A stretch of DNA of 64,000 nucleotides from an uncultured Erysipelotrichaceae bacterium. GTDB lineage: Bacteria; Bacillota_I; Bacilli_A; RF39; UBA660. Each line of letters begins with the position of its first letter. Within the stretch, counting starts at the first letter, position 1. This document shows positions 18,285 through 63,800 of this stretch, one piece after another. The notes under the pieces were generated by a model that saw nothing but the letters and a program-made list of their open reading frames with translations, was not told the DNA's origin and searched no databases. Location: contig CACZXL010000007.1 in NCBI GenBank assembly GCA_902785135.1, positions 6,016-70,015 on the forward strand. The letters run 5' to 3'. A program made the translations under genes and the position numbers.

Positions 18285-19004
18285 ATGAACAAAGTTCCTA
18301 ATCATGTTGCGATTATTATGGATGGAAATGGTAGATGGGCAACCAATAGAGGCTTGGTAAGAACTGAAGGACATAGAAAAGGTGCCTATATGTTAGAAAA
18401 GTTAGCGGTTCATATACTTAATACTGGTACAAAATATTTAACTGTTTATGCTTTTTCAACAGATAATTTTAAAAGACCTGAAACTGAAGTAACTTTCTTA
18501 ATGAATTTATTTATAAAAATGTTTAAATCTGAGATGGATAATATTATTAAAAACGATATAAAAGTAGTATTTTCAGGTAGAAAAGAAAACTTAAGGGATG
18601 ATGTTCTTGAAGCAATGGAATATGTCTCTAATAAGTCTAAAAATAATAAAAAAGGTATATTAAATATATGTTTAAACTATGGTTCACAAGAAGAAATAGT
18701 AGATGCGACTAAAAAAATAGTAAAAGATGTACAAGATGGCATTATAAATATAGATGATATAGATAAAGAAATGTATTATAAATATATGTATAAAGATCTT
18801 CCTCCAATAGATTTAATGATAAGAACTAGTGGAGAACAAAGACTTTCAAACTTTATGTTATATCAGTTAACATATTCAGAATTATACTTTACAGATACTT
18901 ATTTTCCTGATTTTGATGAAAAAGAATATGATAAAGCAATAGATGCTTATAATAATAGAGATAGAAGATTTGGAAAAATAAAAGATGGAAGTGAAAACAA
19001 ATGA
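18285..19004 (+). CDS. uppS: Undecaprenyl diphosphate synthase (isoprenyl transferase)
   Basis: HVAIIMDGNGRWA and the downstream RTSGEQRLSNFMLYQLTYSELYF block. Confidence 0.9.
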   Translation: MNKVPNHVAIIMDGNGRWATNRGLVRTEGHRKGAYMLEKLAVHILNTGTKYLTVYAFSTDNFKRPETEVTFLMNLFIKMFKSEMDNIIKNDIKVVFSGRKENLRDDVLEAMEYVSNKSKNNKKGILNICLNYGSQEEIVDATKKIVKDVQDGIINIDDIDKEMYYKYMYKDLPPIDLMIRTSGEQRLSNFMLYQLTYSELYFTDTYFPDFDEKEYDKAIDAYNNRDRRFGKIKDGSENK

Positions 19005-19902
19005 AAAAATGTGTGATTATTTATAATAAGAAAAGTGGTAAAGTTAAACCAAGTACGTTAATTAATAGTTTTTATAATATTGTTGAAGATTATGGTTATA
19101 AATTAGAAGTAATAACTACTAATAGAAAAGGCCATGCGACAACTATAATGGAAGAATTACCTAATGATATAGATTTAGTTATTGCAGCAGGTGGAGATGG
19201 AACTTTTAATGAAGCTATTAGAGGTAATATAAAAAGGAAGAAAAAATTATTAATGGCTCATTTGCCTTTAGGTACAACTAATGATGTAGGAACTATGTAT
19301 GGATTTAGTAAAAACTATAATATTGATTTGGAATTAATACTTACAGGTGTTAAAAAAAATATAGATGTAATTATGCTTAACGGTGATCCTTTTGTTTATG
19401 TAGCGGCTTTTGGTAATTTTATAAATGTAACAAAGAAAGATTTGGTAGACTTGCTTATTTATTATTTGGTTTTACTGAAATAAAAGAAAGAATTCATATG
19501 AATCATATTAAATATACTATTGATGGAGTAGAAAAAGAAGGTAAATTCTCTTATATATTTATTACAAATAGTAATAGAATAGGTGGAGTAGATAATATAT
19601 ATCCTGATATTAAATTAGATGATAATAAATTTGAAGTTTTACTTTGTAATATAAAAAATAAAGCAGAAATAATACGTTCTTTATATTTAATGAGAAATAA
19701 AGGTATAGAAAATGTTCCAGGATGTGAATACTATTGTACATCTAATTTAAAAATAGAATTTGATGAGACACCTAAATTCTCTTGGGGATTAGATGGAGAA
19801 GAATATAAATCTGAAACAAATATTTTTGAATTCACAGTAAACAAAGATATAAACATTTTATTACCTGAATATAATATAGATAAATTATTTATTGAAAAGT
19901 AG
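19001..19902 (+). pseudogene. DAGK_cat/YegS-type lipid kinase split by a frameshift. ORF 19001..19483 carries the catalytic domain, and 19441..19902 in a different frame carries the accessory domain
   Basis: The first ORF has AAGGDGT and LPLGTTND and ends AAFGNFINVTKKDLVDLL then stop. Frame +1 from 19441 reads FGRLAYLLFGFTEIKE..., continuing the same family. The shift lies between 19417 and 19440 in an A-rich run (caaagaaaga). Confidence 0.65.
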
Positions 19903-19910
19903 GTGACAAT

Positions 19911-20738
19911 ATGAAATTTACAAAAATGCATGGACTTGGAAATGATTATATTTATATAGATTGTACTAAAAATAAGAATAAAATAGATACACCAGAGGAG
20001 TTGTCTAAAAAAGTAAGTGATAGACACTTTGGAATAGGATCTGATGGGCTTATTTTAATCTGTGATAGTGACAAATGTGACTTCAAAATGAGAATGTTTA
20101 ACGCTGATGGATCTGAAGCTGAAATGTGTGGAAATGGAATTAGATGTGTAGGAAAATATGTTTATGATTTTGGTCTAACAGATAAGAATAAAATTACTAT
20201 TGAAACTAAGGCTGGAATAAAAAAACTAAAACTAAATATCGAAAATGAAAAAGTAAAAACAGTAACAGTAGATATGGGAGAACCTATACTAGATAAAAAT
20301 GAAATACCTTTTATTTCAGATAGTAAATTTGTAGAATTAAAAGTACTAGATAGAGAATTTATATTCACACCAGTTTCGATGGGTAATCCACATGCCATTA
20401 CTTTTATTAATAATTTAGATACATTTGATATAGATAAATATGGAAAAATAGTAGAAGTTGATAAACATTTTCCAAATAAGACAAATGTAGAATTTATTGA
20501 AATACTTGATAAAAATCATATAAAAATGAGAGTTTATGAAAGAGGTACAGGCGAAACACTTGCCTGTGGAACAGGTGCTTGTGCTTCAGTTGTCGCATCA
20601 GTTCTAAATAATTTAACAGATAGGACTGTTAATGTTAAGCTTCTAGGAGGTTCTCTAAATATTAATTATAATGAAGATGGTCATGTTTATATGACTGGAG
20701 AAGCTACTACAGTATTTAATGGAGAAATAGATATATAA
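19911..20738 (+). CDS. dapF: Diaminopimelate epimerase
   Basis: [15 protein letters not shown] and the two catalytic Cys contexts ([17 protein letters not shown]). 275 aa. Confidence 0.9.
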
Positions 20739-21334: not shown

Positions 21335-23668
21335 ATGGTTTTAGAAGACAATAGAGTATATATAGTTCCAGAAAACATAAAGAAGGAATTATTATTAGAA
21401 TTAACAAATAAGAAACTATTAATAGATATAAAGTTCTTTTCATTAAAAGAATTTATAAATAACTTAACTTTTACTTATGATGAAAAAGCTATTTATTATT
21501 TAATGAAGAACTATAATTATAAGTATGATAACGCTAAAACCATATTAGATAACTTATATTATATAAATGAAGAAACTTTTAATGACCAAAAATTAATAAA
21601 ATTAAAAAAGATTAAAGAAGAAATAAAAGATCTTCTTATTTATAATGAGTATTTTTATGATTATATAAAAACAAGAAAGATATATATCTATGGTTATTAT
21701 TTTATTAATGAATATGATCTAAAACTATTAAAAGATTTAGATTATGAAATAATAGAAAAATCTGTTAAAGATTATAAACATGATATATATATATTTAATA
21801 ATATATTTGATGAAGTAGTATTTGTATCTTCTAAAATAAGAGAGTTAATAGAAAAGGGTATAGATATAAATAAGATTAAATTAATAAATGTACCATCAGA
21901 ATATAATTTTATCTTAAAACAAGTATTTAATATGTTTAATTTAAATATAAATACTAATAAAGAAAGTATTTATTCTACTAAGATAGTACAAGACTTCTTA
22001 AAAGATATAGATACTTTACCTGAAATAAATATAAATGATGAAGATAACTTATATATTTATAACAAAATAATAGATACTTTAAATAAGTATAGTTTTGATA
22101 TGGATAAAGATATTAAAAGAGAAATACTTATTCATGAATTTAAATCTATTAAAACTAATAGATCATTATTTGAAAATGAAATAGAAATAAAAAATATTAA
22201 TAATATTAAAGATGATGAATATGCATTTTTACTAGGTTTTAATGAAGGTAATTATCCTGTTATTAAAAAGGATGAAGATTATTTATCAGATAAAGAAAAA
22301 GAAAACTTAGGTATATCTACTTCTTTCGAAATAAATAAAATAGAAAAAGAATCTATTATTAATAATATTAAATCTATTAAAAATTTAATTATAACTTATA
22401 AAGATAAAACTCCATTTAATGAGTATTATCCATCTACTTTAATTGAGGAATTAGGTTTTGATGTTAAAGAAGAAGAGGGTAGTTTAAATTATTCTAATTC
22501 ATTAAATAAACTATTATTGTCAAAAGACTTAGATAACTTTGTTAAATATGGAGAAAAAACAAATAGATTAGAAGTATTATTCTCTAACTATAAAGGTATT
22601 AAATATATGTCTTATGATAATAAGTTTAAAGGTTTAGATAAAGAAAAACTTTATAAATATATAAATAATGAACTAACTTTATCATATTCATCAATAGATA
22701 ACTTTTATAAATGTAAGTTTAGATATTATATAAATAATATATTAAAACTAGATAAATATGAAGAAACATTCGCGATATTTATAGGTAATTTATTTCATGA
22801 TATATTATCAAAATGTTTTGAAGATAATTTTGACTTTGAAAAAGAATATTATGACTATATAAAAGAAAAAGATTTTACTAATAAAGAAGAATTCTTTATA
22901 GAAAAAATTAAAGAAGATCTATTATTCGTAATTGAATCTATAAAAAAACAATATAGTTATAGTAATTTTAAAGATGCTTTATATGAAAATAAGTTTGAGA
23001 TAAATAAAGATAAAACTATTAAAGTTAAGTTTATAGGATTTATAGATAAATTATTAACGCGTGTTTATAATGGTAAAACATTATTAGTTATAGTAGATTA
23101 TAAGACTGGTTCTCAAGATCTTAATTTATCTAATTGTTACTATGGATTAAACTTACAATTACCAGTTTATTTATATTTATCTAAGAAGGGTGATCTTAAA
23201 AATAGTGAAGTAGTAGGTTTCTACTTACAAAAAATACTCACACCAATACCAAAGATAGATACTAAAAAAGATTATAGTCTTCAAAAAGAAGATAATCTAA
23301 GATTACAAGGTTATTCTTTATATGATGAAGAATTATTAAATGAATTTGATTCTACATATGAAAATAGTAGAGTAGTTAAATCTCTTTCTAAAACATCAAA
23401 TGGTTTTAGTAGTTATTCTAAATTACTTACTAAAGATCAAATGGATAAATTAGAAGAATTAGTAGATAAAAAGATAGATAATGCAAGAGATATGATACTG
23501 GATGCTGATTTTGAAATAGATCCAAAAGTAATGAAGTTTAAAAATATAAGCTGTGAATACTGTAAATTTAAAGATATATGTTATATGAATCAAAATAATA
23601 TTAAATATCTAAAAGAAATAACAGATTTGAATTTTTTAGGAGGTGATGATGATGCCAACATGGACTAA
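21335..23668 (+). CDS. addB: AddB/RexB-type helicase-nuclease subunit B, compact 777-aa form
   Basis: C-terminal RecB-like nuclease (IVDYKTGSQD) and a Fe-S cysteine cluster (CKFRYY ... CEYCKFKDIC). It sits directly upstream of addA. No intact N-terminal Walker A. Confidence 0.75.
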   Translation: MVLEDNRVYIVPENIKKELLLELTNKKLLIDIKFFSLKEFINNLTFTYDEKAIYYLMKNYNYKYDNAKTILDNLYYINEETFNDQKLIKLKKIKEEIKDLLIYNEYFYDYIKTRKIYIYGYYFINEYDLKLLKDLDYEIIEKSVKDYKHDIYIFNNIFDEVVFVSSKIRELIEKGIDINKIKLINVPSEYNFILKQVFNMFNLNINTNKESIYSTKIVQDFLKDIDTLPEININDEDNLYIYNKIIDTLNKYSFDMDKDIKREILIHEFKSIKTNRSLFENEIEIKNINNIKDDEYAFLLGFNEGNYPVIKKDEDYLSDKEKENLGISTSFEINKIEKESIINNIKSIKNLIITYKDKTPFNEYYPSTLIEELGFDVKEEEGSLNYSNSLNKLLLSKDLDNFVKYGEKTNRLEVLFSNYKGIKYMSYDNKFKGLDKEKLYKYINNELTLSYSSIDNFYKCKFRYYINNILKLDKYEETFAIFIGNLFHDILSKCFEDNFDFEKEYYDYIKEKDFTNKEEFFIEKIKEDLLFVIESIKKQYSYSNFKDALYENKFEINKDKTIKVKFIGFIDKLLTRVYNGKTLLVIVDYKTGSQDLNLSNCYYGLNLQLPVYLYLSKKGDLKNSEVVGFYLQKILTPIPKIDTKKDYSLQKEDNLRLQGYSLYDEELLNEFDSTYENSRVVKSLSKTSNGFSSYSKLLTKDQMDKLEELVDKKIDNARDMILDADFEIDPKVMKFKNISCEYCKFKDICYMNQNNIKYLKEITDLNFLGGDDDANMD

Positions 23669-26600
23669 AGAACAAAATGATGCCATACTAAAAGATAAAT
23701 CTAATATTATTGTTTCCGCTGGGGCTGGATCAGGAAAAACTGCAGTTCTATCTGAAAGAGTTATTAGAAAGTTAAAAGAAGGTGTTCATATTAATGAATT
23801 ATTACTTCTTACTTTTACTAATGCTGCTGCTAAAGAAATGAAAGAAAGAATAAGAAAAAAAATAAAAAAAGAAGGATTAACTAAAGAACTAGAAATGATA
23901 GATCAAGCATATATCACTACATTTGATAGTTATGCTCTTTCAATAGTAAAAAAATATAATTATAAATTAAATGTATCTAAAGATTTATCTATTGTAGATT
24001 CTGATTTAATTAATTATGAAAAAGAAAAAATATTAGATACTTTATTTGAAGAATTATATAAAGATAAGAATCCTGATTTCTTAAAATTAATAAATGATTT
24101 TTGTGTTAAAGATGATACTGAAATTAGAAAATATATTTTAAGTATTTCATCTAAACTAGATTTAATTATAGATTTAGATAAATACTTTGATGAATATGAA
24201 TCTAATTATTTTAGTGATGAATATTTAAATAATATTCTAGAACTATATCTAAATAAAATTAGAGAAAAGCAAGAAAATGTAAGACTATTATTAGAAAACC
24301 TAAACCATTATGTAGATAATAAATATAATGAAAAGATATGGGATACATTAAAAGGTTTATTAGAATCAAAAACATATGAAGAAATTAAATCTAATTCAGA
24401 ACTTAAACTTCCACCACTAAGTAAAGACTTTAGTGAAGCAAAACCATTTAAAGATGAAATAAAAAAAGAAACTGATGAAATAAAGAAGTTATGTTCATAT
24501 ATAAATCTAGAAGACGCTAAAGAAGAAATAATAAAAACTAGGGCCTATATAAAATCTATAATATTAATAATAAAAGAACTAAAAAATAGATTAGATGATT
24601 TTAAATATAAATATAATTTATTTGAATTTAATGATATTGCAAAACTATCTATAAAATTATTAAAAGAAAATGAAGATATTAGAAATGAAATAAAATATTC
24701 ATTAAACGAAATAATGATAGATGAATATCAAGATACAAGTGATATTCAAGAAGCATTTATATCTTTAATAGAAAATAATAATGTTTATATGGTTGGAGAT
24801 ATAAAACAGTCTATTTATAGATTTAGAAATGCTAATCCATATATATTTAAGAATAAATATGAAAAGTATTCTAATAATGATGGTGGAATTAAAATAGATC
24901 TAAATAAGAATTTTAGATCAAGAGAAGAAACTCTTCTTAATATTAATACTATATTTAATTATATTATGAATAAGGATATAGGAGGAGCGGACTATAAATT
25001 CTCTCATCAAATGGTATTTGGTAATAATACTTATAATAATGAAGGTAAAACAGATCAAGATTATAACTTTGAAATATATAATTATGATTATGATAAAGAA
25101 AAAGGATTTACTAAAGAAGAAACTGAAATATTTATAATCGCAAATGATATAAAAAATAAAATAGATAATAAATATAAGATATTTGATAAAGATGAATTAG
25201 TAGTAAGAGATTGTAGTTATAATGATTTTGTAATACTACTTGATAGAGCAAAGGATTTTGAATTATATAAGAAGATATTTGAGTATAAAGGTATACCTTT
25301 ATCAATATATAAAGATGAAAAAGTAAATGATGAAGTAATATTAACAGTATTAAAGAACATGATTGTGTCTTTAGATAAAATAAATAAAAAAGAATTTGAT
25401 AATGACTTTAAACATGCTTTTACATCTATTTTAAGATCATTTGTATTTGAATATACTGATCAAGAGATATTTGATTTATATCTAGAAAATAACTTCTATA
25501 AAAATGATATATATAATGAATTAAGATCTATTAATATAGATAGTAAAACTCCAAAAGAAATAATAAATATATTATTAGATAAATTTAATATAATAGATAA
25601 ATTAACTAAAATAGGAGATATAGATAAGAACTTAGTAATAATAGAATATCTATTAAACTATTTAGATACTAAAGAAAGTATAGGTTATACAATTAGTGAT
25701 ATAGCAGTTTATCTAAATGATATTCTAGAGAAAAAATATGAAATAAAGTTCTCTAGTAATAAAGAATCAAGTAATTCTGTTAAGATTATGACTATACATA
25801 AATCTAAAGGACTAGAATATAACATTTGTTATTACGCAGGTTTATATAATAAGTTTAATATAAGAGATTTAAGTGATAGTTTTATGTATTATAAAAATTA
25901 TGGAATTGTAACACCTTTCTTTAATAATGGTATAGGAGAAACTATATATAAATTCTTAATTAAAGAAGATTACCTTAAAGAGGAAATATCTGAGAAAATT
26001 AGGTTATTTTATGTCGCACTTACAAGAGCGAAAGAAAAGATGATCATGCTCGCAGATCTAAATGGAGATACATATAATTCTAAAGATGAAGATGGAGTAT
26101 TAGAAAATAGTATTAGATTAAAATATAGATCTTTCCAAGATATCATTATGTCTATTGAAGAAGAACTAAGTAAATATGTAACTAAGATTGATAATATAGA
26201 TATTACTAAAGATTATGAGTTAGTTAAAAAATATAATTTTAAAGATTATATTAATGAAAGTGATATAAAGCTAAGTGTTAAAGAATTAGATATAGATAAT
26301 AAAGTTCTTAATAAAGCATCATTTTCTAAAAAACATAATAAGCTTTTAACAGAAGAAGAAATAAAGAACATGAACTTTGGTACTAAGATGCATTATGTAT
26401 TTGAAATAACTGATTTTAATAATCCTGATAATGATATAGTTAAATCTTTCTTAGAAGTATATGATATTAAAGATTCAATAAATATATATAAAGAATATGA
26501 ATTTATGTATCAAGAAGAAGATACTATATATAATGGTGTTATAGACTTAATGTTTGAGTATACTGATCATTTTGATATAATTGATTATAAGTTAAAGAAT

Positions 26601-26729
26601 ATATCAGATGAAGCATATTTAAATCAATTAGAGGGGTATAAAAAGTATATAGAAGATATAACTAATAAGAAAGTAAACATATATTTATATTCAATTATGA
26701 ATAAAGAATTAAAGAAACTAGGTGATTAA
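23643..26729 (+). CDS. addA: AddA-type ATP-dependent helicase/nuclease subunit A, compact 1028-aa form
   Basis: UvrD motifs (SAGAGSGKT, IDEYQDTS, VGDIKQSIYRFR, HKSKGLEY, LFYVALTRAKEKM) plus a C-terminal RecB nuclease block GVIDLMFEYTDHFDIIDYK. Confidence 0.8.
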   Translation: MMMMPTWTKEQNDAILKDKSNIIVSAGAGSGKTAVLSERVIRKLKEGVHINELLLLTFTNAAAKEMKERIRKKIKKEGLTKELEMIDQAYITTFDSYALSIVKKYNYKLNVSKDLSIVDSDLINYEKEKILDTLFEELYKDKNPDFLKLINDFCVKDDTEIRKYILSISSKLDLIIDLDKYFDEYESNYFSDEYLNNILELYLNKIREKQENVRLLLENLNHYVDNKYNEKIWDTLKGLLESKTYEEIKSNSELKLPPLSKDFSEAKPFKDEIKKETDEIKKLCSYINLEDAKEEIIKTRAYIKSIILIIKELKNRLDDFKYKYNLFEFNDIAKLSIKLLKENEDIRNEIKYSLNEIMIDEYQDTSDIQEAFISLIENNNVYMVGDIKQSIYRFRNANPYIFKNKYEKYSNNDGGIKIDLNKNFRSREETLLNINTIFNYIMNKDIGGADYKFSHQMVFGNNTYNNEGKTDQDYNFEIYNYDYDKEKGFTKEETEIFIIANDIKNKIDNKYKIFDKDELVVRDCSYNDFVILLDRAKDFELYKKIFEYKGIPLSIYKDEKVNDEVILTVLKNMIVSLDKINKKEFDNDFKHAFTSILRSFVFEYTDQEIFDLYLENNFYKNDIYNELRSINIDSKTPKEIINILLDKFNIIDKLTKIGDIDKNLVIIEYLLNYLDTKESIGYTISDIAVYLNDILEKKYEIKFSSNKESSNSVKIMTIHKSKGLEYNICYYAGLYNKFNIRDLSDSFMYYKNYGIVTPFFNNGIGETIYKFLIKEDYLKEEISEKIRLFYVALTRAKEKMIMLADLNGDTYNSKDEDGVLENSIRLKYRSFQDIIMSIEEELSKYVTKIDNIDITKDYELVKKYNFKDYINESDIKLSVKELDIDNKVLNKASFSKKHNKLLTEEEIKNMNFGTKMHYVFEITDFNNPDNDIVKSFLEVYDIKDSINIYKEYEFMYQEEDTIYNGVIDLMFEYTDHFDIIDYKLKNISDEAYLNQLEGYKKYIEDITNKKVNIYLYSIMNKELKKLGD

Positions 26730-30962: not shown

Positions 30963-31036
30963 GGACCTATAGCCAAGTGGTAAGGCACGGGACTGCAACT
31001 CCCTGATCGTTGGTTCAAATCCGACTAGGTCCTCCA
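30963..31036 (+). tRNA. tRNA-Cys (GCA)
   Basis: Acceptor stem ggaccta/taggtcc, anticodon loop ctGCAac, T-arm gttgg-ttcaaat-ccgac, encoded CCA. Confidence 0.85.
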
Positions 31037-31042
31037 TGGATT

Positions 31043-31117
31043 GCAGGTGTAGTACAATGGTTAGTACGAGGCCTTGCCAAGGCTTAGACGAGAGTTCGAT
31101 TCTCTTCACCTGCTCCA
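31043..31117 (+). tRNA. tRNA-Gly (GCC)
   Basis: Acceptor stem gcaggtg/cacctgc, anticodon loop ttGCCaa, T-loop ttcgatt, discriminator U, encoded CCA. Confidence 0.9.
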
Positions 31118-48707: not shown

Positions 48708-48836
48708 TATAATAGATAATAGGATAGTATAAAGAGTAGTGTAACAATGTCTCTTTGTATTAAATATGATCCTGTTGTTTTAACTATGAAATAAAATGGA
48801 AAATCAGTAATAGTTAGGGAAGTTTAGAGGTGTCTT

Positions 48837-51800
48837 ATGAAAAAATCTAGTAGGGTTAGATTATTACTTTTTGCATTAGTAGTATTTGTAATGCAATTAT
48901 TTGCTTTTAACGGAAAGGTAAAAGCAGAGTATGTTTCTTATGGTAAAACATACAATGAAGTATTTTACGTTGTTAATGGCGAACATTATAGGATGAAATT
49001 GTTTAAGAGCGATTTTGATCAATGTGGTAGCGCGGATCCAGATTATAAGAATTGGAAAAGCGTTTATATTTTTCCGTCACAACATACTTATGTCCATGGC
49101 TTAATGAATTGTATAAGAGATGTTGATGGTAACAGAGAAATACAGAAAGAAGCATTTATAGATGATCATACTGCTGTTGTTGGATGGTATAGTAACCCTG
49201 AATTAACTGGTAGTCCTATTAAATCGGCACCTTACGGACAAGATACTACTGTTTATGGTAAAACAGCACCAGCTATAACTATTTGGGTTGATGGTAAAAA
49301 AGTTAGTATGGTTAAAAATAAAACATATGACTTTGAATACATTAATTCATATAATAGATATGATAATGAAATTACATCTGAAAATAGTAAAATGACTATA
49401 GATGGTAAATATATTACTGCTATGGCTTATTGGACAAAAACAAAAGCACATGTAGATGCAAATGATAGAATTGATTTATATAGAAACGTGCATTTTTATA
49501 ATTCTCAATACTTTCCAGCTATTCATGAAATATTTAATATAAGAGGGCAAAATCCACAACTTTATAAGAGCCAAAATTCTGATAGAATCGATTATTATCA
49601 AGTACTACCAACATATTATGAAGTACTTGATTTGATAGATGAAGAAGGTAATTCATATAATTTTAAAAAAATTACTGCAACAGAAGATGTTGATGGTAAA
49701 CATTTTACAGTAATAACAAGTGATGAAATATGTGTTAAACATGGTTTATCAGGTCCTTTGAATGAACACGAAAAAGACCATCGTTTCCTTGGATATACTT
49801 TATTAGATACAGACTTAGAAGATTATGTTTATTATTCTGATGGTTATGTAAGACAAATAAATTCTTGTAATACACATGATTTTAATTTAAAAGCTCATTT
49901 TGATGGAATTAATCCTGGAGAACAAGTTAATATCGTTGAACTAAAAGGATATGGAGGTACAAGGGAAAAAGTATTAAGAGGATCAAAATATACTATTCCA
50001 ACTCCTCAAGAAAAAGCTCCTACTACATTTACAGTTACATTTGATTATCAAGATGGAGTTACACCTTCTTTAATTAAAACAGGAAAAGTAACATATACAC
50101 CAGTTGGCTATTCGTTAGATGGCGTTGTATATCCTGCTGGAACTAAAATTACTGTTGTTAAAAATATAGTTTTAGAACCAGTTTATAAAGAAACAATAAG
50201 TGATGTAGATTTTCCAACAGATCCTTCAAGACAATACTATACTTTTAAAGGATGGTTTGATCAAGGTGTTGGTGGAAGAGCAGTATCAAAAATAGAAGCT
50301 GTATCACAAAAATTATATGCTCAATGGGTTGAAAAAGATAAAGTAACAGTAATAAGACCTGATGGCGTATCTATAAATTTACAAAAAGGTACTGAATATA
50401 CACTACCATTTATTCCAAAGAAAAAACCTGCTATTTTAGCAACAGTACTTGCATATCATAACAATGAAACAGATGATTATGATTTATATTATGTTAAAAC
50501 TAATTATATAATTGGTGGATACAACATTAATAACAAACATTATGATGTTGGTGATACTATAGTTGTTAATGAAAATATAGATTTAAGACAACATTTGATT
50601 TATAACGAAGAAAGAGAAAATCCTACTTTTAAAGAATTAACAAGAGATGATTATACATTCTTAGGATACTATGATTCAGTAACAGGTGGTACAAAGTATA
50701 CTGAATATACCGGAACTACAAACAAAATATTATATGCACATTGGTCAAATGATAATAACAATGTAAAAATAACATATCCTGATGGAACGTTTGATAAAGT
50801 TTTAAAAGGTTCAAATTATACACTTAGAGATGGAATAGCAAAATCAGATGAATCAAAGACAGTAACATTTAAATATCAAGATGATTCTACAGCAGATTAT
50901 ATAACTTCTGTTAATAAACAATTTACTTCAAATGGATGGTATATAGATGGAATTCATTATGATGAAGGTCAAACTATAACTGCAGATAAAGATATGACTG
51001 TTGAATCAGATTATATAGAAACAATAATACCTGCTACTTTCCCAAGTAATCCTGTAAGAGTTGGTTACAATTTTAAAGGTTGGTATAATCAAGCATCTGG
51101 TGGAACTAAATATACAAGTTACAGTATATTTGATGATATAACACTTTATGCACAATGGACAACTTTATCTTATCAAGAAATGACTGTTACAGTACTTCCT
51201 GCTGGAACAGTTACAAAAGTAAGAAAAGGTTATTCTTATACATTACCTACATTACCAAGTAAAGATGATGATGAGTTAGCCACAGTAACTTTAAAATATC
51301 AAGATGGTTCTACAAAAGATAAAATAAAAAAAGTAACTAAATCTTATACAGTAGATAAATGGGATATATCAGGAGATACATATACAACTACAACTGCTGG
51401 AACAAGCATTAGAGTAAATAATAATCTTGTAATTAGTCCTATATATAAAGAAACTATTAATCCAGTAACATTTAAAGATGCTGAAAGAGAAGGTTATTTA
51501 TTTAGAGGATGGTATGATATTGAAGGTAATAGATATACTTATTATGATGGTATTGATGATATAACTCTATACGCTCATTGGGAAGAAACTGAGTTCCCTA
51601 TTGGTGTAGAATTTGAATTACCAGAACTTGATACAATAGACGATGAAGTATTATCAACAGTAACATTTAAATATAAAAATGATCATAGAGATACTACAAG
51701 TAATGTTGTTAGACAATATATTAAAAATGGTTGGATAGTAGATGGAAAATTATATCAACCTGGGGACAAAGTAACTTTAAAATATGATTCTATTATCAAA

Positions 51801-54800
51801 GAAGACTATACAGAAACTATTGTACCTGCAGAATTCCCAGAGGATCCAATAAAAGAAGGCAGTACATTCAAAGGATGGTTTGATAAAGAAACAAATGGTG
51901 GTAATAAATATACTACTTATGATGGTGAAGAAGATATTACTTTATATGCTAGATGGAAAAGAAATGGTACAGCAGAACCATATACTTTAGGTATAAATAA
52001 TACTCCAAAAGAAAGTATAGTGATTTCAACAAAAACATTCGTTTTACATAATGGTGAGGAAGATATAACAGTTAATATAATGGAAGACTTTGTTCCAAAT
52101 GGATGGTTAGTAGATGGTGAACCATATCCTGATGGAGCAACTATTATGAAATATCCAGATACTGTTATAAGACCAAATTATACAATATTTGTTAGAAATG
52201 CTGATTTTCCAGCAGATCCAGTTAAACCAGGATATAAATTTATTGGATGGTTCACTTCTGAAACTGGTGGATATCAAGTAACAATTTTAAATACTTATGA
52301 TTCTAATACATTACATGCACAATATACAGATAGTTTTGCATACTTAATTGATGGACCTTCATTTAATTCAAAAATATATTCTAAATACGCTAATGATTAT
52401 TCTTCAAGTTATTCATTTAGAAGAGCTACTTCAGAAGAATTGCAAGAAGTTATTAATACATTAGATTCAAGCAATGTTATTTCTACTAATGATTCTCCAG
52501 TTCCAGTATATTTTTGGAGAACAGGATCAACAATTCTAGTAGGATCAACTGCAGATACAATATATTTTAATCCGGATTCTTCATTTATGTTCTCTACAAA
52601 AGAAAATGAAAGAAACACTTCTGCAGCAAGAGAATATTATTCATCGATTGATTTAAGCAAATTCAATAGTTCAATAGTTACAAATATGAAAGGTATGTTT
52701 GCATATCAAAATAATGCAACAACAATCAACTTAAGAAATTTTAATACAAGTAGAGTAACAGATATGTCTTGGTTATTTTATGCAACATCATCTTTAAGTA
52801 CAGTAGATGTAACTTCATTTGATACTCATAATGTTACAACAATGAAAAATATGTTTGGTGCTGGTAGATTTACAAGCTTAAATGTAACTAGATTTGATAC
52901 AAGTAATGTAACAGATATGTCATACATGTTTGAAAATAACTTGTTGACAGATCCATTAAATTTAAGCAGATTTGATACTAGTAAAGTTACTAATATGAGT
53001 TACATGCTTTCATCAATAGGATATGTTCCAAGTATAGATGTTTCAAGTTTTGATACAAGTAATGTAACAGACATGTCAAATATGTTCTCTAGTACACCTT
53101 GGGTTACAACTTTAAATTTAGGAAGCTTTGATACAAGTAGTGTAGAAAATGCAAATAATATGTTCTATAATACTGGTTCAAATAAATTAACAACAATTTA
53201 TGTTTCTGAAAAATGGAATTTAAGTGATCTTCCAAGTAATCAAAGAATATTCTTTAATAATAATCAACTAGTTGGACAAAAAGGAACAGTATATGATGGT
53301 CATGATTATAAGGATTATGCGATTATAGACGACGCTCCTAATAATCCGGGTTATTTAACACATGTTAAAAATATAAAACCAATACCAGAAGGTACTCATA
53401 CAGTTAGTCTTCCTGATTATACTGAAGAAGTAGATCATGGATCAACTTATGATATTCCAAATAATAGATATCCAAAAGAAAACGAGGATGTCGCTAAAGT
53501 AACATTTAAATATGGAAATGGTCATGAAGATACAACAAGTAAAGTTCAAAAACAATTTATAGGTAATGGATTTACAATTGATGGGGTTCATTATGATGAT
53601 GGTGGATCTATTGTTGTAGTAAAGGATATTGCTTTAATACCTGATTATACTGAAGTTAATTTAGGTGCAGAGTTCCCAGAAGATCCTTCAAATAATCAAT
53701 TTGAATTTATTGGATGGTTTGATCATGAATTTGGTGGTACTCAATATACAAATTATGCTGGTAATGAAGATATTACTTTATATGCTCAATGGAAAGTAAA
53801 TGTTGCTCCTATACCAGGACAAGATTATGTATTACCTACAAATAATTATCTTAAAGAAGATGAAATATTAGGAACAGTAACATTTAAATACCATAATGGC
53901 ACTGCTGATACAACAAGTACTGTTATTAAACAATATATTAATCATGGTTGGTTGGTAAATGGAGATTATTATAACGATGGTGATGTTATTAATGTTGTAG
54001 AAGGTGTTGATTATATAATTGAACCTAATTATATAGTTAAGACTATTCAAGCTGAATATCCAGAAAATCCTAGTAAAGATGGTTATGAATTTGCTGGATG
54101 GTATACTGAAGAAACTGGTGGTAAATTAGTATCTGCTTATAGTGGAGAAACAGATATAACATTACATGCTCAATATTCTGATGATTATGCATTATTAGAT
54201 TTAGGTGGTAATGTAAATACTAAGTTAAAGAGTTTATGTAATAGTTATACTGGATTAAATGATTTATCATTTAGAAAAGCAACTCAAGATGAATATAATC
54301 TAGTATCTAGTTCTTTAACTGATGATAATAAAATTTCTTCTAGTGATTCACCTAAAACAGTATATGCATGGTTAAGTGGAGATGAAGTAATATATTATTC
54401 TGATGCAGATATTATCTATGCAAAACCAAATTCTATCTGGATGTTTAAAGAGACAACTTTTAAAACAATAGATATATCTGGTATAAATACAACAAAGGTT
54501 ACTGATCTAGGTTATTTCTTCGAAGAATGTCATTCGTTAGAAGAGATAATTGGTTTAGATACTTTATATACTCATAATGTTAAAGGAATGGCATATATGT
54601 TCCATAACACTACTAGTTTAAAAACTGTAGATTTAAGTCATTTTGATACAAGTAAAGTTACAGGCTTTCATAGTATGTTCTCAGGTAGTGCTGTAACAAA
54701 ACTAGATTTAAGAAGTTTTGATATAAGTTCTGCTACTAGAATAGATAGAATGTTCCAATCAACTCGAAGTCTTAAAGAACTTGATATAACTAGTTTTGAT

Positions 54801-57800
54801 ACAAGTAATATAACTAATATGGAAGGCACGTTTGCATATACTGCTTTAGATGAAATTGATTTAAGTCATTTTGATACAAGTAAAGTAAATAATGTTAGAG
54901 CAATGTTTTCTAATGTTGAGGCTACAACTATTTATGTATCTGAAAAATGGGGTCTAAGTAATTCAATTGATGATTATAGATTATTCTGGAGAGCTTATAA
55001 CCTTGTTGGACAAAAAGGAACAGTATATGATGAAGGACAAATTGATAGAGCTTATGCAATTATAGACGATGCTCCAGAACATCCAGGATATTTAACTTAT
55101 AGAAAAGCACCAGGTTCACCTGATACATATTCTGTAGTTTATCCTGATGGAAGAGTATTTAATGTAGTAGCTGGTGGAACTCATACATTATTAGAAAATA
55201 ATTATCCTAAAGAAGATAGTAAGTTAGCAACAGTAACATTTAAATACTATAATGGTCACGAAGATACTCAAAGTTATGTAATGAGAAATTATACTCCTAA
55301 TGGTTGGTTAGTAGAAGGAACTCATTATGGTAATGGACAAAATATAACTGTTAATAGTGATATATTATTGGAACCAGATTATACTAATGCAACTATTAAA
55401 GCAGAATTCCCAGAAAATCCAACTGCTGAAAATTTAAAATTTAAAGGTTGGTATTCAGCAGCTTCTGGTGGTTCAAAATATTCATCATATTATAACCTTT
55501 ATGATATTACATTACATGCTCAATGGGATAGTACAACAAATCCAATGCCAGGTAGTCCTTATACATTGCCAACAAATAATACTACTAAGGCTAGTGAAAA
55601 TGTAGCTAGTGTATTATTTAAATATCAAAATGGTAAAGAAGATACAGTTAGTTATGTTAAAAAGAACTTTAAACCAAATGGATGGTTAGTAGATGGAGTT
55701 CATAAGAATACTGGTGAAATAATAAATGTTACTGAAGATACAGTTATTGAACCAGATTATACAATTACTTATTCATCTGCTTCATTCCCAGCAAATCCTA
55801 CAAGAACTGGATATACATTTATGGGATGGTTCGATGCAGAATTTGGTGGTAATATTTATAGTAGAACTACTGGATATAAAGAACCTAGAAATATTACTTT
55901 ATATGCTCATTGGAGTAAAACAGGTAATACTTATACTTTACCTTTGAATGAAGAAACAAAAGAAAGTGAAGTAGTATCTCTTGTAACGTTTAAATACCAT
56001 AATGGAGAAGCAGATACTTATGGACAAGTAATTAGAAAATATGTTCCAAATGGATGGCTTGTAAATGGTGTTCATAAAGAAACTGGAGAAAATATTACAA
56101 AGACTGACCAAACTATTATAGAACCAGACTTTAGAGAAGTTATTGTACCAGTAGAGTTACCTAAAAATCCTACTAAAACCGATTATTTGTTTGAAGGTTG
56201 GTATGATGCAGAAACTGGTGGAAATAAAATTGTAGTTTATAAAGGAACAGAAAATATTACATTGCATGCTCACTATACTAATAATTATGCAATTTTAACA
56301 ACTGGACCTTTATTCCATAATAAGGTGGTAGAATTAACATCATCATATACTTCTTCAGCACAATTTACATTTAGAAAAGCAACTGAATCAGAGTATAACG
56401 AAGTAGCTGAAACATTAACAAATGCTAATATTATTTCAGCTAGAACATCTCCAAATGTAGCTTATATGTGGACATCTGGAAACTTAATTCTATATTATTC
56501 ACCTGTAGATATAATATTTATGAATGAAGATAGTTCTTCAATGTTCTTTGTAGCTAATAGTAATACGCAATTTAATAAATTTTTATCTATAGATATGACT
56601 GGATTAAACTCAAGTAGAGTTAGAAGTATGCATGCTTTATTTAAGGCAGAATCCAATAGTGGTATAACTACATCTATTGATTTAACAAATTTTGATACTC
56701 ACAATGTTACTGATATGTATGGAATGTTTTCTGGTTTAAATAAGATTACATCAATAGATACAAGTTCATTTGATACAAGAAAAGTAAAAGATATGTCCGG
56801 AATGTTTGATAATTGTAGTAAGATTACATCATTAGATTTGAGTCATTTTGATACAAGTAATGTTACAAATATGACAAATATGTTCGGCTCATGTTATAGT
56901 TTAACATATTTGAATGTATCAAATTTTGACACAAGTAAAGTAAAAAAATTTGACTATATGTTTGCAGGTTGTAGAGCATTAACAGAAATAGATGTTAGAA
57001 GCTTTAATACTGAAGGGGTAACTAGTGAATATGAATCTGGTTATGCAAGTATGTTCGGAAATATGTCGTCTATAACTGAACTAGATTTAACATCATTCTC
57101 TGGTGGAGTAGGAAATATGGTTAGCATGTTTTCTGGTTGTAGTAATTTAGTAACAATATATGTTTCAGAAAAATGGGAAGAACCTAGAAGTGAATATTTT
57201 GAAGGAAGAACATTCGAGAGTGATACAAAACTAGTTGGACAAAAAGGAACAACATATGATGCAAATCACGTTGATTCAGAATATGCTAGAGTAGATGAAG
57301 GCCCATCTAGACCTGGATATTTAACATTTAAAGGATTGATAGGTACTCATAAAGTTACTCTTCCTAACAGAGTTGAGGAAGTTAAACATGGTGGAAGTTT
57401 CGTAATACCTAAAAATACAATTTCTAAAGCAAGTGAAGATTTAGCAACAGTAACATTTAAATATGGAAATGGACAAGATGATACAACTAGTAAAGTTCAA
57501 AAACAATATGTACCTAATGGTTGGTCTATTGAAGGATTGCCTTATTCAGATAATGAAGTGATAATAGTTTTAGAAGATATTACTATTGATGCTGAATATT
57601 CAGAAATACAAGTTGGAGCAACTTATCCATCAACTCCTTATAAAGAAGGATATGCATTTGTTGGATGGTATACAGAAGAAACTGGAGGAGAAAGAGTAGA
57701 TTCATATAATGAATTAAATGATATAACATTATATGCTCATTGGACTCTAGATCCGCCAGAACCAAATCAACCATATGTATTACCTTTAAATGATAATGCT

Positions 57801-60800
57801 AAAGCAAGTGAAGACTTAGCAGAAGTAACATTTAAATTTAATAATGGTGACGTAGATTATATTGGTTATGTTACAAAAGTATATACACCAAATGGATGGC
57901 TTGTTGATGGTACTCATTATAATTCAGGAGATACTATTAATATTGGAGATACTATTCCTGAAATAATACCTGATTATACTGAAGTGATAAAAGGTGTTAC
58001 ATTCCCAACTGATCCTAAGAGAGTAGGTTTATACTTTGATGGTTGGTATGATGCTAAAGTTGGAGGAACTAAATATACTTCATATGAAGAAACAAATGAT
58101 ATTACTTTATATGCTAGATATACTGATCAAGGTGATTATGGTAAATATAAATTACCAATTAATAATGAAACTAAACCTTCAAAAATTATTTCAACAGTAA
58201 CATTTAAATATCATAATGGACAAGAAGATACTACTGCTAATGTAGTAAGAAGATATGAACCAAACGGATGGTTAGTAGATGGTGTCTATCATGGTAATGG
58301 TGAATATATAAAGAAAAATGATAATACTGTAATAGTACCAAGTTTTGCAGAATTTATCGATCAAGTTATATTCCCAGCTACACCTACAAAGAATGGAAGT
58401 TCATTTGTAGGATGGTATACAGCAGAAACTGGTGGAGACCATGTTACAACTTATAAAGGTACAATTGATATTACATTACATGCACAATATACTGAAAGTT
58501 ATTCAATATTAGTACCAGGTACTACTTTCCGTAATATTGTAGCTAATAAAACATTAGGTCAATTTACTGAAGCAACTCGTAATAATAATATATATTTCAG
58601 AAAAGCAAACCAATCTGAATATAATGCAGTTTCAGCAAATCTAACATCAGATAATATTATATCTACTTCAGATTCACCATATGTTACTTATATTTGGTTT
58701 AATGAAAGTAATGATGAAGTATTATATTATTCTGAGGCAGATGTAATATATGCAAACCCTGATTCGTCATATATGTTCTCACCAATAAATAAATGGGACC
58801 ATAATAATTTCTCATATAATATAATAGATTTATCTGGAATAAACTTTAATAAGGCTACTACTTTCTATTATATGTTCTATACATATTATTCTAGAGATTA
58901 TTTAAAAGAAATAATTTTTGGTGACATAGATACAAGTAATGTAACAAATATGTCTGGTATGTTCTTACATAATACAGGAATAAGGAACTTAGATGTAAGT
59001 AAGTTTAATACAGGTAATGTAACGAATATGTCTACTATGTTTGGTTCTTTAACTTCAATTGAAGAATTAGACGTAAGTAATTTTGATACTCATAATGTTA
59101 TTAATATGAATGGTTTATTTTCCGTTATGGAAAAGTTATCAGAGTTAGATTTAAGTAATTTTGACACAAGAAAAGTAACAAATATGGGATCTATGTTTTC
59201 TCAGTGTAAATCTTTAGATTATTTAGATGTAAGCATGCTTAATACACATAATGTAACAGATATGTCTTATATGTTTAGTGGTATGCTTGCTCTTAGAAAA
59301 CTTGATTTAGGTTCATTCGATACATCTAATGTAACGACTATGTACTCCATGTTTCAAAGTGATATGGTATTACGATATGTAAATCTATCTTCATTTGATA
59401 CATCTAAAGTAACAAATATGCAGCAAATGTTTGATGGAACTGGTTTAATGGAAATAGATGTAACAAGTTTTAATACTAGTAATGTAACAAATATGCAACA
59501 TATGTTTAATAATAGTGATTTCCTTAAAAGAATTGTAGGATTATCTTCATTCGATACTAGTAACGTAACAAGTATGCAAGGAATGCTTGCTTGGAATTCT
59601 TCTCTTGAATATGTAGATATTTCTAATTTTACATTTGATAGTATATCTGGTAATGGTGTTTATGGTTTATTTGAACGCGATGAAAATCTTAAAGAAGTTG
59701 TTTTTGGTGATATAAAATTCAATAATCCTTCATCAATGGCATTTATGTTTGATGATGATAGATCATTAGTAAGAATATCATATAATTCTATTGATACAAG
59801 CAATGTTAATAATATGGAGTATTTATTTGCATATTGTGAATCGCTAAATGATTTCTCTATGGTTACTGAATTTGATACATCTAATGTAACAAGAATGAAT
59901 GATATGTTCCTTGGAGTTTCAGTAACAACATTAGATTTAAGTAATTTTGATACAAGAAATGTAACAAGTATGAATGGTATGTTTGCTGGTTCTTGGGCAA
60001 GTGCTCCTAATAGAAATCTAAGGACAATATATGTTTCTGATTTCTGGGATACAAGCAAAGTTACAAATGGATCATCTATGTTTCAATATTCATCTAGTCT
60101 TGTTGGAGAAAAAGGAACTACATTTGATTCAAATCACATAGATGTTGATTATGCACATGTAGATGGTGGTACTTCTAATCCAGGATACTTAACTTATAAG
60201 AAGTCAGGTTATAACGTTACACTTCCAGATAGAGTAGATCATGTTAAAGCTGGTGACGAATATACAATTCCTTTAAATGATTACTTTAAAGATGATGAAA
60301 CATTATCTACAGTAACATTTAAATATCAAAACGGACAAGATGATACAACAAGTAATGTAGTTAAAAAATATGTTCCAAAAGAATGGAAGATAGAAGACGA
60401 AGATTATGAAAATAGAGAAGTAATAAAAGTATATAAAGATATTGTTTTACTTCCACAATATGAAGAAGAATTATTTGAAGCTGAATTCCCAGCTGATCCA
60501 ACAAAAGATAATTATATATTTGATGGATGGCATACTTCTGCTACTGGTGGAACTAGATACTTCAATTATGCTGGGGATAGTAATTTAACTTTATATGCTC
60601 ACTGGGCTAAACCAGATGATAAATTCTTTGATTTAACTTATTGCGATTTAGATGGAGAATGCGAAACAACTAGAGTAACTAATGGTACTAAAGTTAAATT
60701 AGCTAAACAATCTGCTTCTAAGGAATTATTATTATATCTAGATTATCAAGATGAAAATCCTAGAAGACAATATAAAGCTACATATAAAAAGGAATCAAGT

Positions 60801-63800
60801 AGTTTCTTAGTAAATGATAAATCATATAATGTTGATGATGTAGTAACAATTACTGAAGATACTACAATAGTTCCAGAAGTTAAAATAATAGAATCTAAAT
60901 CTACAATTGCAGAACCTACTAAAGAAGGTCAAAAGTTTATAGGTTGGTATACTGATGCTTCTGCTGGAAGTCAAATAGATATTGACTCTATAACATATGA
61001 TCAATTTGATACTTATAATGGTAATACTTTATATGCTCATTATGTAGAAGTAGGAACAAATCAAGTAGTAGTAGATTTTGATGGTGATATAAGAGTAGTT
61101 AATAAGGGAACTACAGAAAATCTTCCATCTACTAAGAATAAAGATAGTGATTCATTTATAATTCATTGGATTGATAGTCATGGAAGTAACTATAATTCAA
61201 CTATTACAAATAGTTACTCATTAGATAAGTTCTTAGTAAATGGAGAAGAAAAAGAAAAAGGAGCGTCAGTAACTTATAATGAAGATACTGTAATTAGATC
61301 TCAATACACAACTACTAGAAGTTATGATTCTAATACTACAAGTACTTATAGTATTAGTTATCCAAATTTATTACCAAATAATAATGAAGACTTCTTAGGA
61401 TGGTTTGTATTAGATGATGAAATAGATGATGTTTCTGATATTAATACTGAAACTAATATCTACGCTCACTATGTTGAAAAGATTAATTTAGATGTAGATG
61501 GTAAAGTTTCTAAAGTAAATAAAGGAACAGTTTATACTGTACCAACAAGTACTGTTAATGAATCTATTACTATCACATTAGATCAAAATTATGTAGGAGC
61601 ACCATCTCCAGTAGATTATACAATTACTACTTCTAATGAATTAGAATATCAAACTATTAATGGAGTAGTATACTTCCCAGGAGATGAAATAACTCTTAAT
61701 GAAGATACAGTAGTTGTAAGTACTGCTTCAGAAGAAGAAACAACTATTGAACCAGCATATACTAAACCAGAAAGAACTGGATATATATTCAAAGGTTGGT
61801 TACATAATAATGAAGAAGTATTTATAGAAAATATTACTGGTAGAACTACTTCACTAGATAATGAAACATTAACTGGTGATTGGGAAGAATTTAATTCTGA
61901 AACTAACGCAATATTACATGTAACTGGTAAATTTACATATGATATTCAAGTTACTAAAGGATCAGAATTAGAAATTATAGATTTTGCTAAAGATACTAAT
62001 GCAAGTATTAAATTAGTAGATAACGATAATAACAAAGAATATAATGTTACTTTAACAACTAATTATATGCCAACATCAGGAACATTTAATGGTACTCCAG
62101 TAAGTTCTGATAGTTCTATAGTTGTTAATGAAGAATCAACATTAGAATTAGAATATTTAGATGTTAATACAAGAGTATATGATATAGAATATCCAGAGTA
62201 CTTAGAAGAAGAACCTCCAGTAGAAATAACTAATAATACATATGTAGGTATTTATGAAGAAGATTCTACTGATTCAAATAGAATAGATTACTTAAGTCTA
62301 AGCGCAGAAAGTGATATAGATGGAAATACATACTATATTAAATATCTAAATCCTGATCAAGGATATGTATTAGTAACATTAGATGGAAATGCTTATGTAG
62401 TGCCTAAAGGACCTGGTAAATTACCTGGACCTACTACTAAAACAAGTGATGAATATACAATAACATTTGATTATAATAGATCATCTGGTAGAAAAGAAGA
62501 AAGAAAGATTATAAAGAGTTATCAATATGATAAATTCTATGTAACAGTACCAGAAGAAAGTTCTAATACATCTGGAAATTACCAATCAGAAGCAAACTTT
62601 AACTATGATACAAATACAGTTATTGATAGTTTATTCACTTATACAATTACTTATCCAGAAATACCTGAAGTAAATTCAGAAAACTTCTTAGGATGGTATA
62701 CTAAACCAAACGGAGGAGAATTAGTTACTTCTCTAGAAGGTAAAGTAGAAGATTATACATTATATGCTAGATATGATAATCAAATAATGAATATAACATT
62801 AGATGAAACAGTTTATACAGTTCCATATGGTGATGAATTTGAATTCCCAGCTGGACCAAGTAAAACTAGTGAATCAATAACACTTCATCTACATGATAAT
62901 TATGGTGAAGATAATGTTAATGACTATGTTATAAGTAAAGATTATACATTTAAATCTTATATAATAGATGGAGTAGAATATAATGCTGGTGATAAATTAA
63001 TAATCACTGAAGATAAATTAGGTCATTCTACATATACTGAATCTAAATCTACAAATGATGAATCATTATTAAGACCAGAAAGAGATAATTACTTATTCGC
63101 TGGATGGGAAGATTCAGAACATAATAGAGTAAATGTTTCATCATTAACCGCTGATGATACAGAATATGATGAAAAAGATTTATATGCTAAATGGGAAGAA
63201 GATAATGGAGATAATATTACTATTGATTATGATGGAGAAATAATAGTTGTTCCAAGTGGAACATATACACCATCAAGATTAACTAGTGAATATGAAAGTC
63301 CGTTAAAACCAAAAGATGAAATAATGACTGTAACAGTTGATTGGAATGGCGCAGAAGGTCATGATTCACCAACTAAACAAGTTGTTATTAAGAAAAATTG
63401 GATTCTTTCTAAGTTAATAATTAATGAAGATGAACTAATTGATTATGATAATACAGAATATGTATTTAATTTTGATACTAAAGTTCAAGGAGTATTTGAT
63501 AAGACTTATGAAGGTGATATTACTACTGAAGGTGGAGATAACTCAGAAGGTATTTATACTGAACCAGTAGGAGGAACTAAAATTGAGTCTAATGATCAAG
63601 TAACTGATGGTGCATATTATTATGTTCATTATAGAAATAGTTATAGTATCTATATAAATAATGAATTCTATGAATCTGTTAATGCAGGAAGGTATACTTT
63701 ACCAGTTAATACAGTTCCTAAGAACATGGATAATATCGCAACTATTACATATGATTATCAAGATGGTAGAGATAATACATACGGTTATGTTAGAAGAAAA

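Follow-up and report, generated by a model that had tools for sequence, protein, structure and literature searches.

In the window, by which we mean the whole 64,000-nucleotide stretch of DNA that was analysed, a gene predicted to encode a soluble lipid kinase has been split into two reading frames by the loss of 22 bp at positions 19431/19432. We consider it probable, at roughly 60%, that this loss represents a real deletion allele, probably segregating beside the intact allele. The DNA of the window is very AT-rich (~20-30% GC), and the features discussed below are the following.

18285 to 19004, + strand: uppS, undecaprenyl-diphosphate synthase family, 239 aa, the upstream neighbour (from the list of open reading frames, with a Pfam Prenyltransf match on the identical gene at the related loci L001 and L083).
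19001 to 19483, + strand, frame 1: 5' fragment of the lipid kinase gene, 160 aa, with the DAGK_cat domain and a premature TAA at 19481-19483.
19431 to 19432, + strand: deletion junction; in the DNA alignment the intact alleles have 22 additional nt here (ATTTGATACTCCAAAAAAATGG, or the equivalent block displaced by one A).
19432 to 19902, + strand, frame 3: 3' part of the kinase gene, coding for residues 152-307 of the intact protein, with the YegS_C beta-sandwich domain.
19911 to 20738, + strand: dapF, diaminopimelate epimerase, 275 aa, intact, the downstream neighbour (Pfam DAP_epimerase match on the identical gene at locus L088).

An earlier sequence-only reading had assigned the catalytic domain of a DAGK/YegS-family lipid kinase to the ORF at 19001-19483 and the C-terminal domain of the same family to another frame that continues into the ORF at 19498-19902. 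Both assignments were upheld by Pfam. The first ORF matched DAGK_cat (PF00781) with E=5e-26 over residues 4-125, and it contains the AAGGDGT (residues 62-68) and LPLGTTND motifs. Frame 3, which is open from 19420, directly after a TAA at 19417-19419, and reads FYKCNKERFGRLAYLLFGFTEIKE... up to the stop at 19900-19902, matched YegS_C (PF19279) with E=9e-8; its first start codon is the ATG at 19498, corresponding to Met-172 of the intact protein. The two kinase frames overlap by 64 nt (19420-19483). When the intact orthologue P0001 was compared with the window by tblastn, residues 1-144 aligned to 19001-19432 and residues 152-307 to 19432-19899, both at 100% identity, and the distribution of one gene's two halves over two frames is far beyond chance. 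Codons 1-144 of the first ORF are authentic and are followed by 16 out-of-frame codons (KKDLVDLLIYYLVLLK) before the TAA, and the ORF ends 17 aa after AAFGNFINV, not 13 aa as had been counted. As judged from the domains in both frames and from the intact orthologues, positions 19001-19902 represent one gene, encoding a soluble lipid kinase of the YegS/BmrU/DgkB family whose two domains now lie in different frames, in agreement with the original proposal of one broken gene.

For the homology searches, the query was a 300-aa fusion made by patching the two frames of the window together. It retrieved intact 307-aa orthologues on many contigs with 96-97% identity, or 99% when a gap of seven residues was disregarded, together with thousands of more distant proteins. 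The intact kinase gene is 924 nt long, against 902 nt for the deletion allele. The best match is encoded by the closest contig, L001 (ENA ERZ28613674, scaffold_74, 152 kb), which is collinear with window positions 9001-29902 and shares 99.818% identity over 20,924 aligned bases, with 16 mismatches and the 22-nt gap as the sole indel; between 9386 and 23247 the window is base-identical to L001 apart from this gap. The look at other strains that the sequence-only reading had recommended showed the 22 nt to be present in seven close contigs from seven sample accessions (L001, L002, L085, L086, L089, L090, and L091). Among the GTDB species representatives, each of the 80 best loci of other species gave one uninterrupted match covering at least residues 1-299, the closest representative being only 85% identical. 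All relatives are metagenome-assembled genomes (MAGs) of uncultured 'Bacilli', 'Erysipelotrichaceae' or 'Tenericutes' from rumen, rabbit, human, and other guts. The 120 homologous proteins listed measure ~305-319 aa and none is split or frameshifted; the exception by length is a 270-aa fragment, P0032.

Alignment of the two halves to the intact homologue, which had also been suggested, pinned the indel to 22 nt. The intact allele reads GTAAC[ATTTGATACTCCAAAAAAATGG]AAAGAAAG across the junction, the brackets enclosing the lost block, and the placement relative to L001 is ambiguous by 1 nt (an A); the corresponding sequence of the window is GTAACAAAGAAAG, with A3 runs at most. The junction falls inside the interval 19417-19440, where the break had been expected. 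The deletion removes codons 145-151 (FDTPKKW, F145-W151) and one further base, which shifts the frame by -1. Among the seven lost residues, F, T, P, and K occupy nearly invariant columns of the protein alignment. On the DNA alignments, the lesion that caused the split of the kinase gene is a 22-bp deletion, and because the surrounding DNA is otherwise identical to that of strains with the intact gene, it appears to be very recent and a simple null allele. Microhomology at the junction amounts to only 1 nt; the DNA alignment revealed no direct repeat longer than 1 nt and no homopolymer there, and no significant hairpin was predicted at the deletion site when structure was computed on the intact sequence (z=0.04). 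A 1-nt microhomology without repeat or hairpin is less typical of spontaneous bacterial deletions.

These details bear directly on the cause put forward in the sequence-only reading, namely a +1/-1 frameshift in an A-run, with a genuine pseudogene, a phase-variable homopolymer, and an assembly error as the three possible origins. A contingency locus whose expression is switched by the length of an A-run could be imagined in such AT-rich DNA, as the window has an A8 run nearby (19354-19361) and the intact allele an A7 run. The change relative to the intact alleles, however, is one block of 22 nt and not 1 nt, no run at the junction exceeds A3, and the A7 run sits within the lost block, i.e., it was deleted rather than altered. 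In all the strains compared, the A8 run does not vary and no further gap was seen, and slippage cannot reverse a 22-nt deletion. With no repeat tract at the break, and with the 22-nt block as the only indel relative to the seven close contigs, phase variation was excluded, and a single-base slip has practically no chance of being the explanation; the pseudogene and the assembly error are both live. The sequence-only reading had further held that a single-base difference restoring one continuous frame of ~300 aa would overturn its interpretation, although a protein restored in this way would still be without the seven residues of the 307-aa intact form.

The overlap of the two frames also raises the idea of functional recoding, in which a programmed -1 frameshift between 19420 and 19480 would yield a full-length kinase, or of a split enzyme assembled from the products of both ORFs. 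A -1 shift within the 64-nt overlap would indeed join the frames, and A AAG occurs at 19432-19435. Against this, direct reading of the sequence revealed no canonical X XXY YYZ heptamer, the intact sequence showed no significant stimulatory structure, and the homologues are all single-frame, both among the 120 listed proteins and at the 80 loci with one continuous match each. The background is identical to that of the intact strains, which leaves no time for a recoding signal to have evolved, and the joined product would still lack the seven residues with their nearly invariant positions. A split enzyme would face an additional difficulty, as the second ORF, starting at Met-172, would miss the first strands of its domain. 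A programmed ribosomal frameshift was therefore rejected, and we regard either form of this explanation as highly improbable.

The intact orthologue P0001 passes the TIGR00147 model (YegS/Rv2252/BmrU) with 126.1 bits against a cutoff of 118.65, and it shares with this family the two-domain architecture (DAGK_cat PF00781 and YegS_C PF19279), the GGDGT nucleotide-binding motif, and a length of ~300 aa. The patched 300-aa fusion of the window scores 107.0 bits, under the same cutoff, because the seven residues are missing. The N-terminal DAGK domain with the GGDGT motif that characterizes TIGR00147 is found in ORF 19001-19483; the NAD-kinase-like YegS_C domain, which resides on the same polypeptide in all homologues, lies in the -1 frame beyond the premature stop. 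The copy in the window differs from the family in being interrupted and is, by these comparisons, a degraded member of the YegS/Rv2252/BmrU lipid kinase family. The closest solved relative is Staphylococcus aureus DgkB (PDB 2QV7/2QVL), with E=1.4e-29 for 2QV7 in an alignment of residues 2-238. Opposite the lost FDTPKKW, 2QV7 has YETPSKL (stretch SYETPSKLK), just past the catalytic domain. Although the best NCBIfam matches of P0001 are the diacylglycerol kinase models PRK13055 and PRK13337, its scores of 141.3 and 156.5 bits against the DgkB equivalog PRK13337 and the subfamily PRK13055 are far below the respective cutoffs of 385 and 342 bits, and for this reason neither orthology to DgkB nor the substrate is established. 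P0001 is, on these scores, a relative of DgkB and not a demonstrable orthologue. The genomic context of the kinase gene, after uppS and before dapF, also differs from that of DgkB.

The DgkB/YegS fold has an active site formed between both domains. Loss of 22 bp at 19431/19432 would accordingly be expected to inactivate the kinase gene; the lost FDTPKKW lies where the C-terminal domain begins. Ribosomes that initiate at the normal start codon would run through the 16 wrong codons to the stop at 19481-19483 and would give a 160-aa product with the ATP-binding domain only, while the C-terminal domain (residues 152-307) would be stranded in the -1 frame without a start codon before 19498. Since only the N-terminal domain of 160 aa would be made and the active site lies between the two domains, the allele is most likely null. 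No compensating paralogue was detected within the window by tblastn with intact P0001. DgkB, which Gram-positive bacteria have as a soluble diacylglycerol kinase, turns diacylglycerol into phosphatidic acid in S. aureus, as part of a lipid recycling pathway that is essential (PMC11962490).

Whether the deletion belongs to the organism or to the assembly was assessed from the contigs of nearly identical strains. Contig k141_272788 (L084; MEGAHIT, ERZ27280358, 25,489 nt) stops exactly at window position 19432, the last base common to the deleted and the intact alleles; it matches the window without a difference over its final 4,148 nt and with two mismatches over the ~19.4 kb compared. In the same sample, contig k141_1132896 (L090; 50,281 nt) starts 8 nt before 19432 and carries the intact 22 nt. 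With 10 differences from the window in 4.3 kb, it represents a second strain. The Logan contig ERR3275098_48315 (L087), 100% identical to the window, stops at 19406, 26 nt before the breakpoint. That two contigs end so near the junction, within 26 nt and in one case at the exact base, is very unlikely to be due to chance, and the simplest reading is that the reads diverge at the breakpoint since both alleles are present. In such a mixture, k-mers up to the breakpoint would be backed by both alleles and those beyond it by each allele alone. Because an assembly of the same strain from another accession stops exactly at the breakpoint, the deletion allele is probably present, beside the intact one, in part of a natural gut or rumen population.

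The same contig ends could have another origin. A scaffolder that wrongly closed a gap in coverage, within the same read set or a related one, could explain them equally well; the organism would then possess the intact 924-nt gene, and two contig ends resulting from low coverage or strain mixing would have been joined with 22 nt dropped. In favour of such an artefact, two other assemblies of what is essentially one strain are interrupted at this place too (L084 ends at 19432 and L087 at 19406, and L090 begins 8 nt before the junction), which marks the spot as hard to assemble, and the two broken contigs of 25,489 and 50,281 nt sum to about 75,410 nt, the length of the contig with the 160-aa product. 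The deletion was seen on one contig only, every other close contig being intact, so the junction itself is supported by a single assembly, and the microhomology of merely 1 nt points in the same direction. Furthermore, a scaffolding error affects the very same gene in L091, from related datasets. On the other hand, a scaffolder would normally leave Ns, whereas the stretch of the window around the junction contains none. De Bruijn graph assemblers cannot form a junction with a 1-nt overlap unless the reads hold spanning k-mers, and the junction in the window would have needed such reads. A contig that ends at the last base common to both alleles is what a genuine fork between two alleles would be expected to produce. 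Comparison with four near-identical independent contigs of other accessions (~50 kb) revealed no further indel: L093 (14.5 kb), L094 (8.3 kb), L092 (6.7 kb), and L084 (4.1 kb) all match at an identity of about or at least 99.985%, so the assembly of the window is not generally indel-prone. On balance, we consider the artefact unlikely without being far-fetched, and a real deletion allele remains our preferred explanation.

Direct searches for the deletion allele gave the following picture. The protein collection (NCBI and ENA) contains the exact 160-aa product a single time, on one contig of 75,410 nt, presumably the source of the window itself. The exact 160-aa and 134-aa ORF products were not found in the contig index, and two junction patterns of 43 and 23 nt were not found among GTDB genome contigs or JGI metagenome contigs, a result that is uninformative if the source is absent from these collections. 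A 134-aa C-terminal product from another sample (P0137) was considered as a second, independent split and rejected as a scaffolding artefact of L091 (STEW19-1_SAMEA5383957 scaffold_124879). In that contig (region 535-700) the kinase gene is called as pieces of 174 and 134 aa owing to an N10 scaffold gap followed by ~140 nt of foreign sequence; the 22 nt are still present.

The deletion allele resembles other strain-specific frameshifted pseudogenes in MAGs, in that one small indel interrupts otherwise identical DNA, a stop codon comes too early, and sister strains keep the intact gene. The sole distinction is the independent contig break exactly at the junction, which hints that both alleles co-occur in one sample. 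It is probably an ordinary and very recent loss-of-function deletion, or possibly an assembly artefact, and a known kind of event in a well-known gene family. For annotation, the two ORFs should be treated as one gene disrupted by a 22-bp deletion, neither as two proteins nor as a homopolymer frameshift; beyond annotation, the case matters little. If the allele were confirmed, it would provide a small natural-knockout datum on the dispensability of a DgkB-like kinase in an uncultured gut Bacilli lineage, and it would illustrate how the inactivation of a gene within a population breaks up metagenome assemblies precisely where the variant lies. A more far-reaching version holds that a natural population of this low-GC lineage, in the rumen or gut, harbours a real null allele together with the intact one, so that a soluble lipid kinase resembling DgkB, although essential to model Firmicutes, would be dispensable in this organism or conditionally counter-selected; it is a tentative and somewhat doubtful proposition.

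Minor differences between the strains are unevenly distributed. Ten of the 16 mismatches with L001 fall within 151 nt (window 25994-26144), inside the ORF at 23643-26729, which belongs to the UvrD-helicase family, and seven of the 10 differences with L090 lie in 55 nt (window 21586-21640). Both clusters look like small recombination or hypervariable patches.

The gene order uppS-kinase-dapF is conserved at L001, L002, L083, L085, L086, L088, and L089, and the exact uppS product of the window is present on eight further contigs. At the ATGA of positions 19001-19004 the stop codon of uppS overlaps the start codon of the kinase, which suggests that the polyprenyl-diphosphate synthase and the lipid kinase may be translationally coupled. 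The synteny block of the window also includes the sporulation genes SpoIVA and SpoVIF. Further downstream, a tandem pair of tRNA-Cys(GCA) and tRNA-Gly(GCC) genes is located on the + strand at 30963-31117, where the GC skew flattens, and several genes change to the - strand between 31 and 35 kb. A single stop-free frame of more than 5,057 codons extends on the + strand from 48828 to 63998 and past the end of the window; its product is a giant repeat protein, in which 12 stretches belong to DUF285 (PF03382) and 15 to the Flg_new / Listeria-Bacteroides repeat (PF09479).
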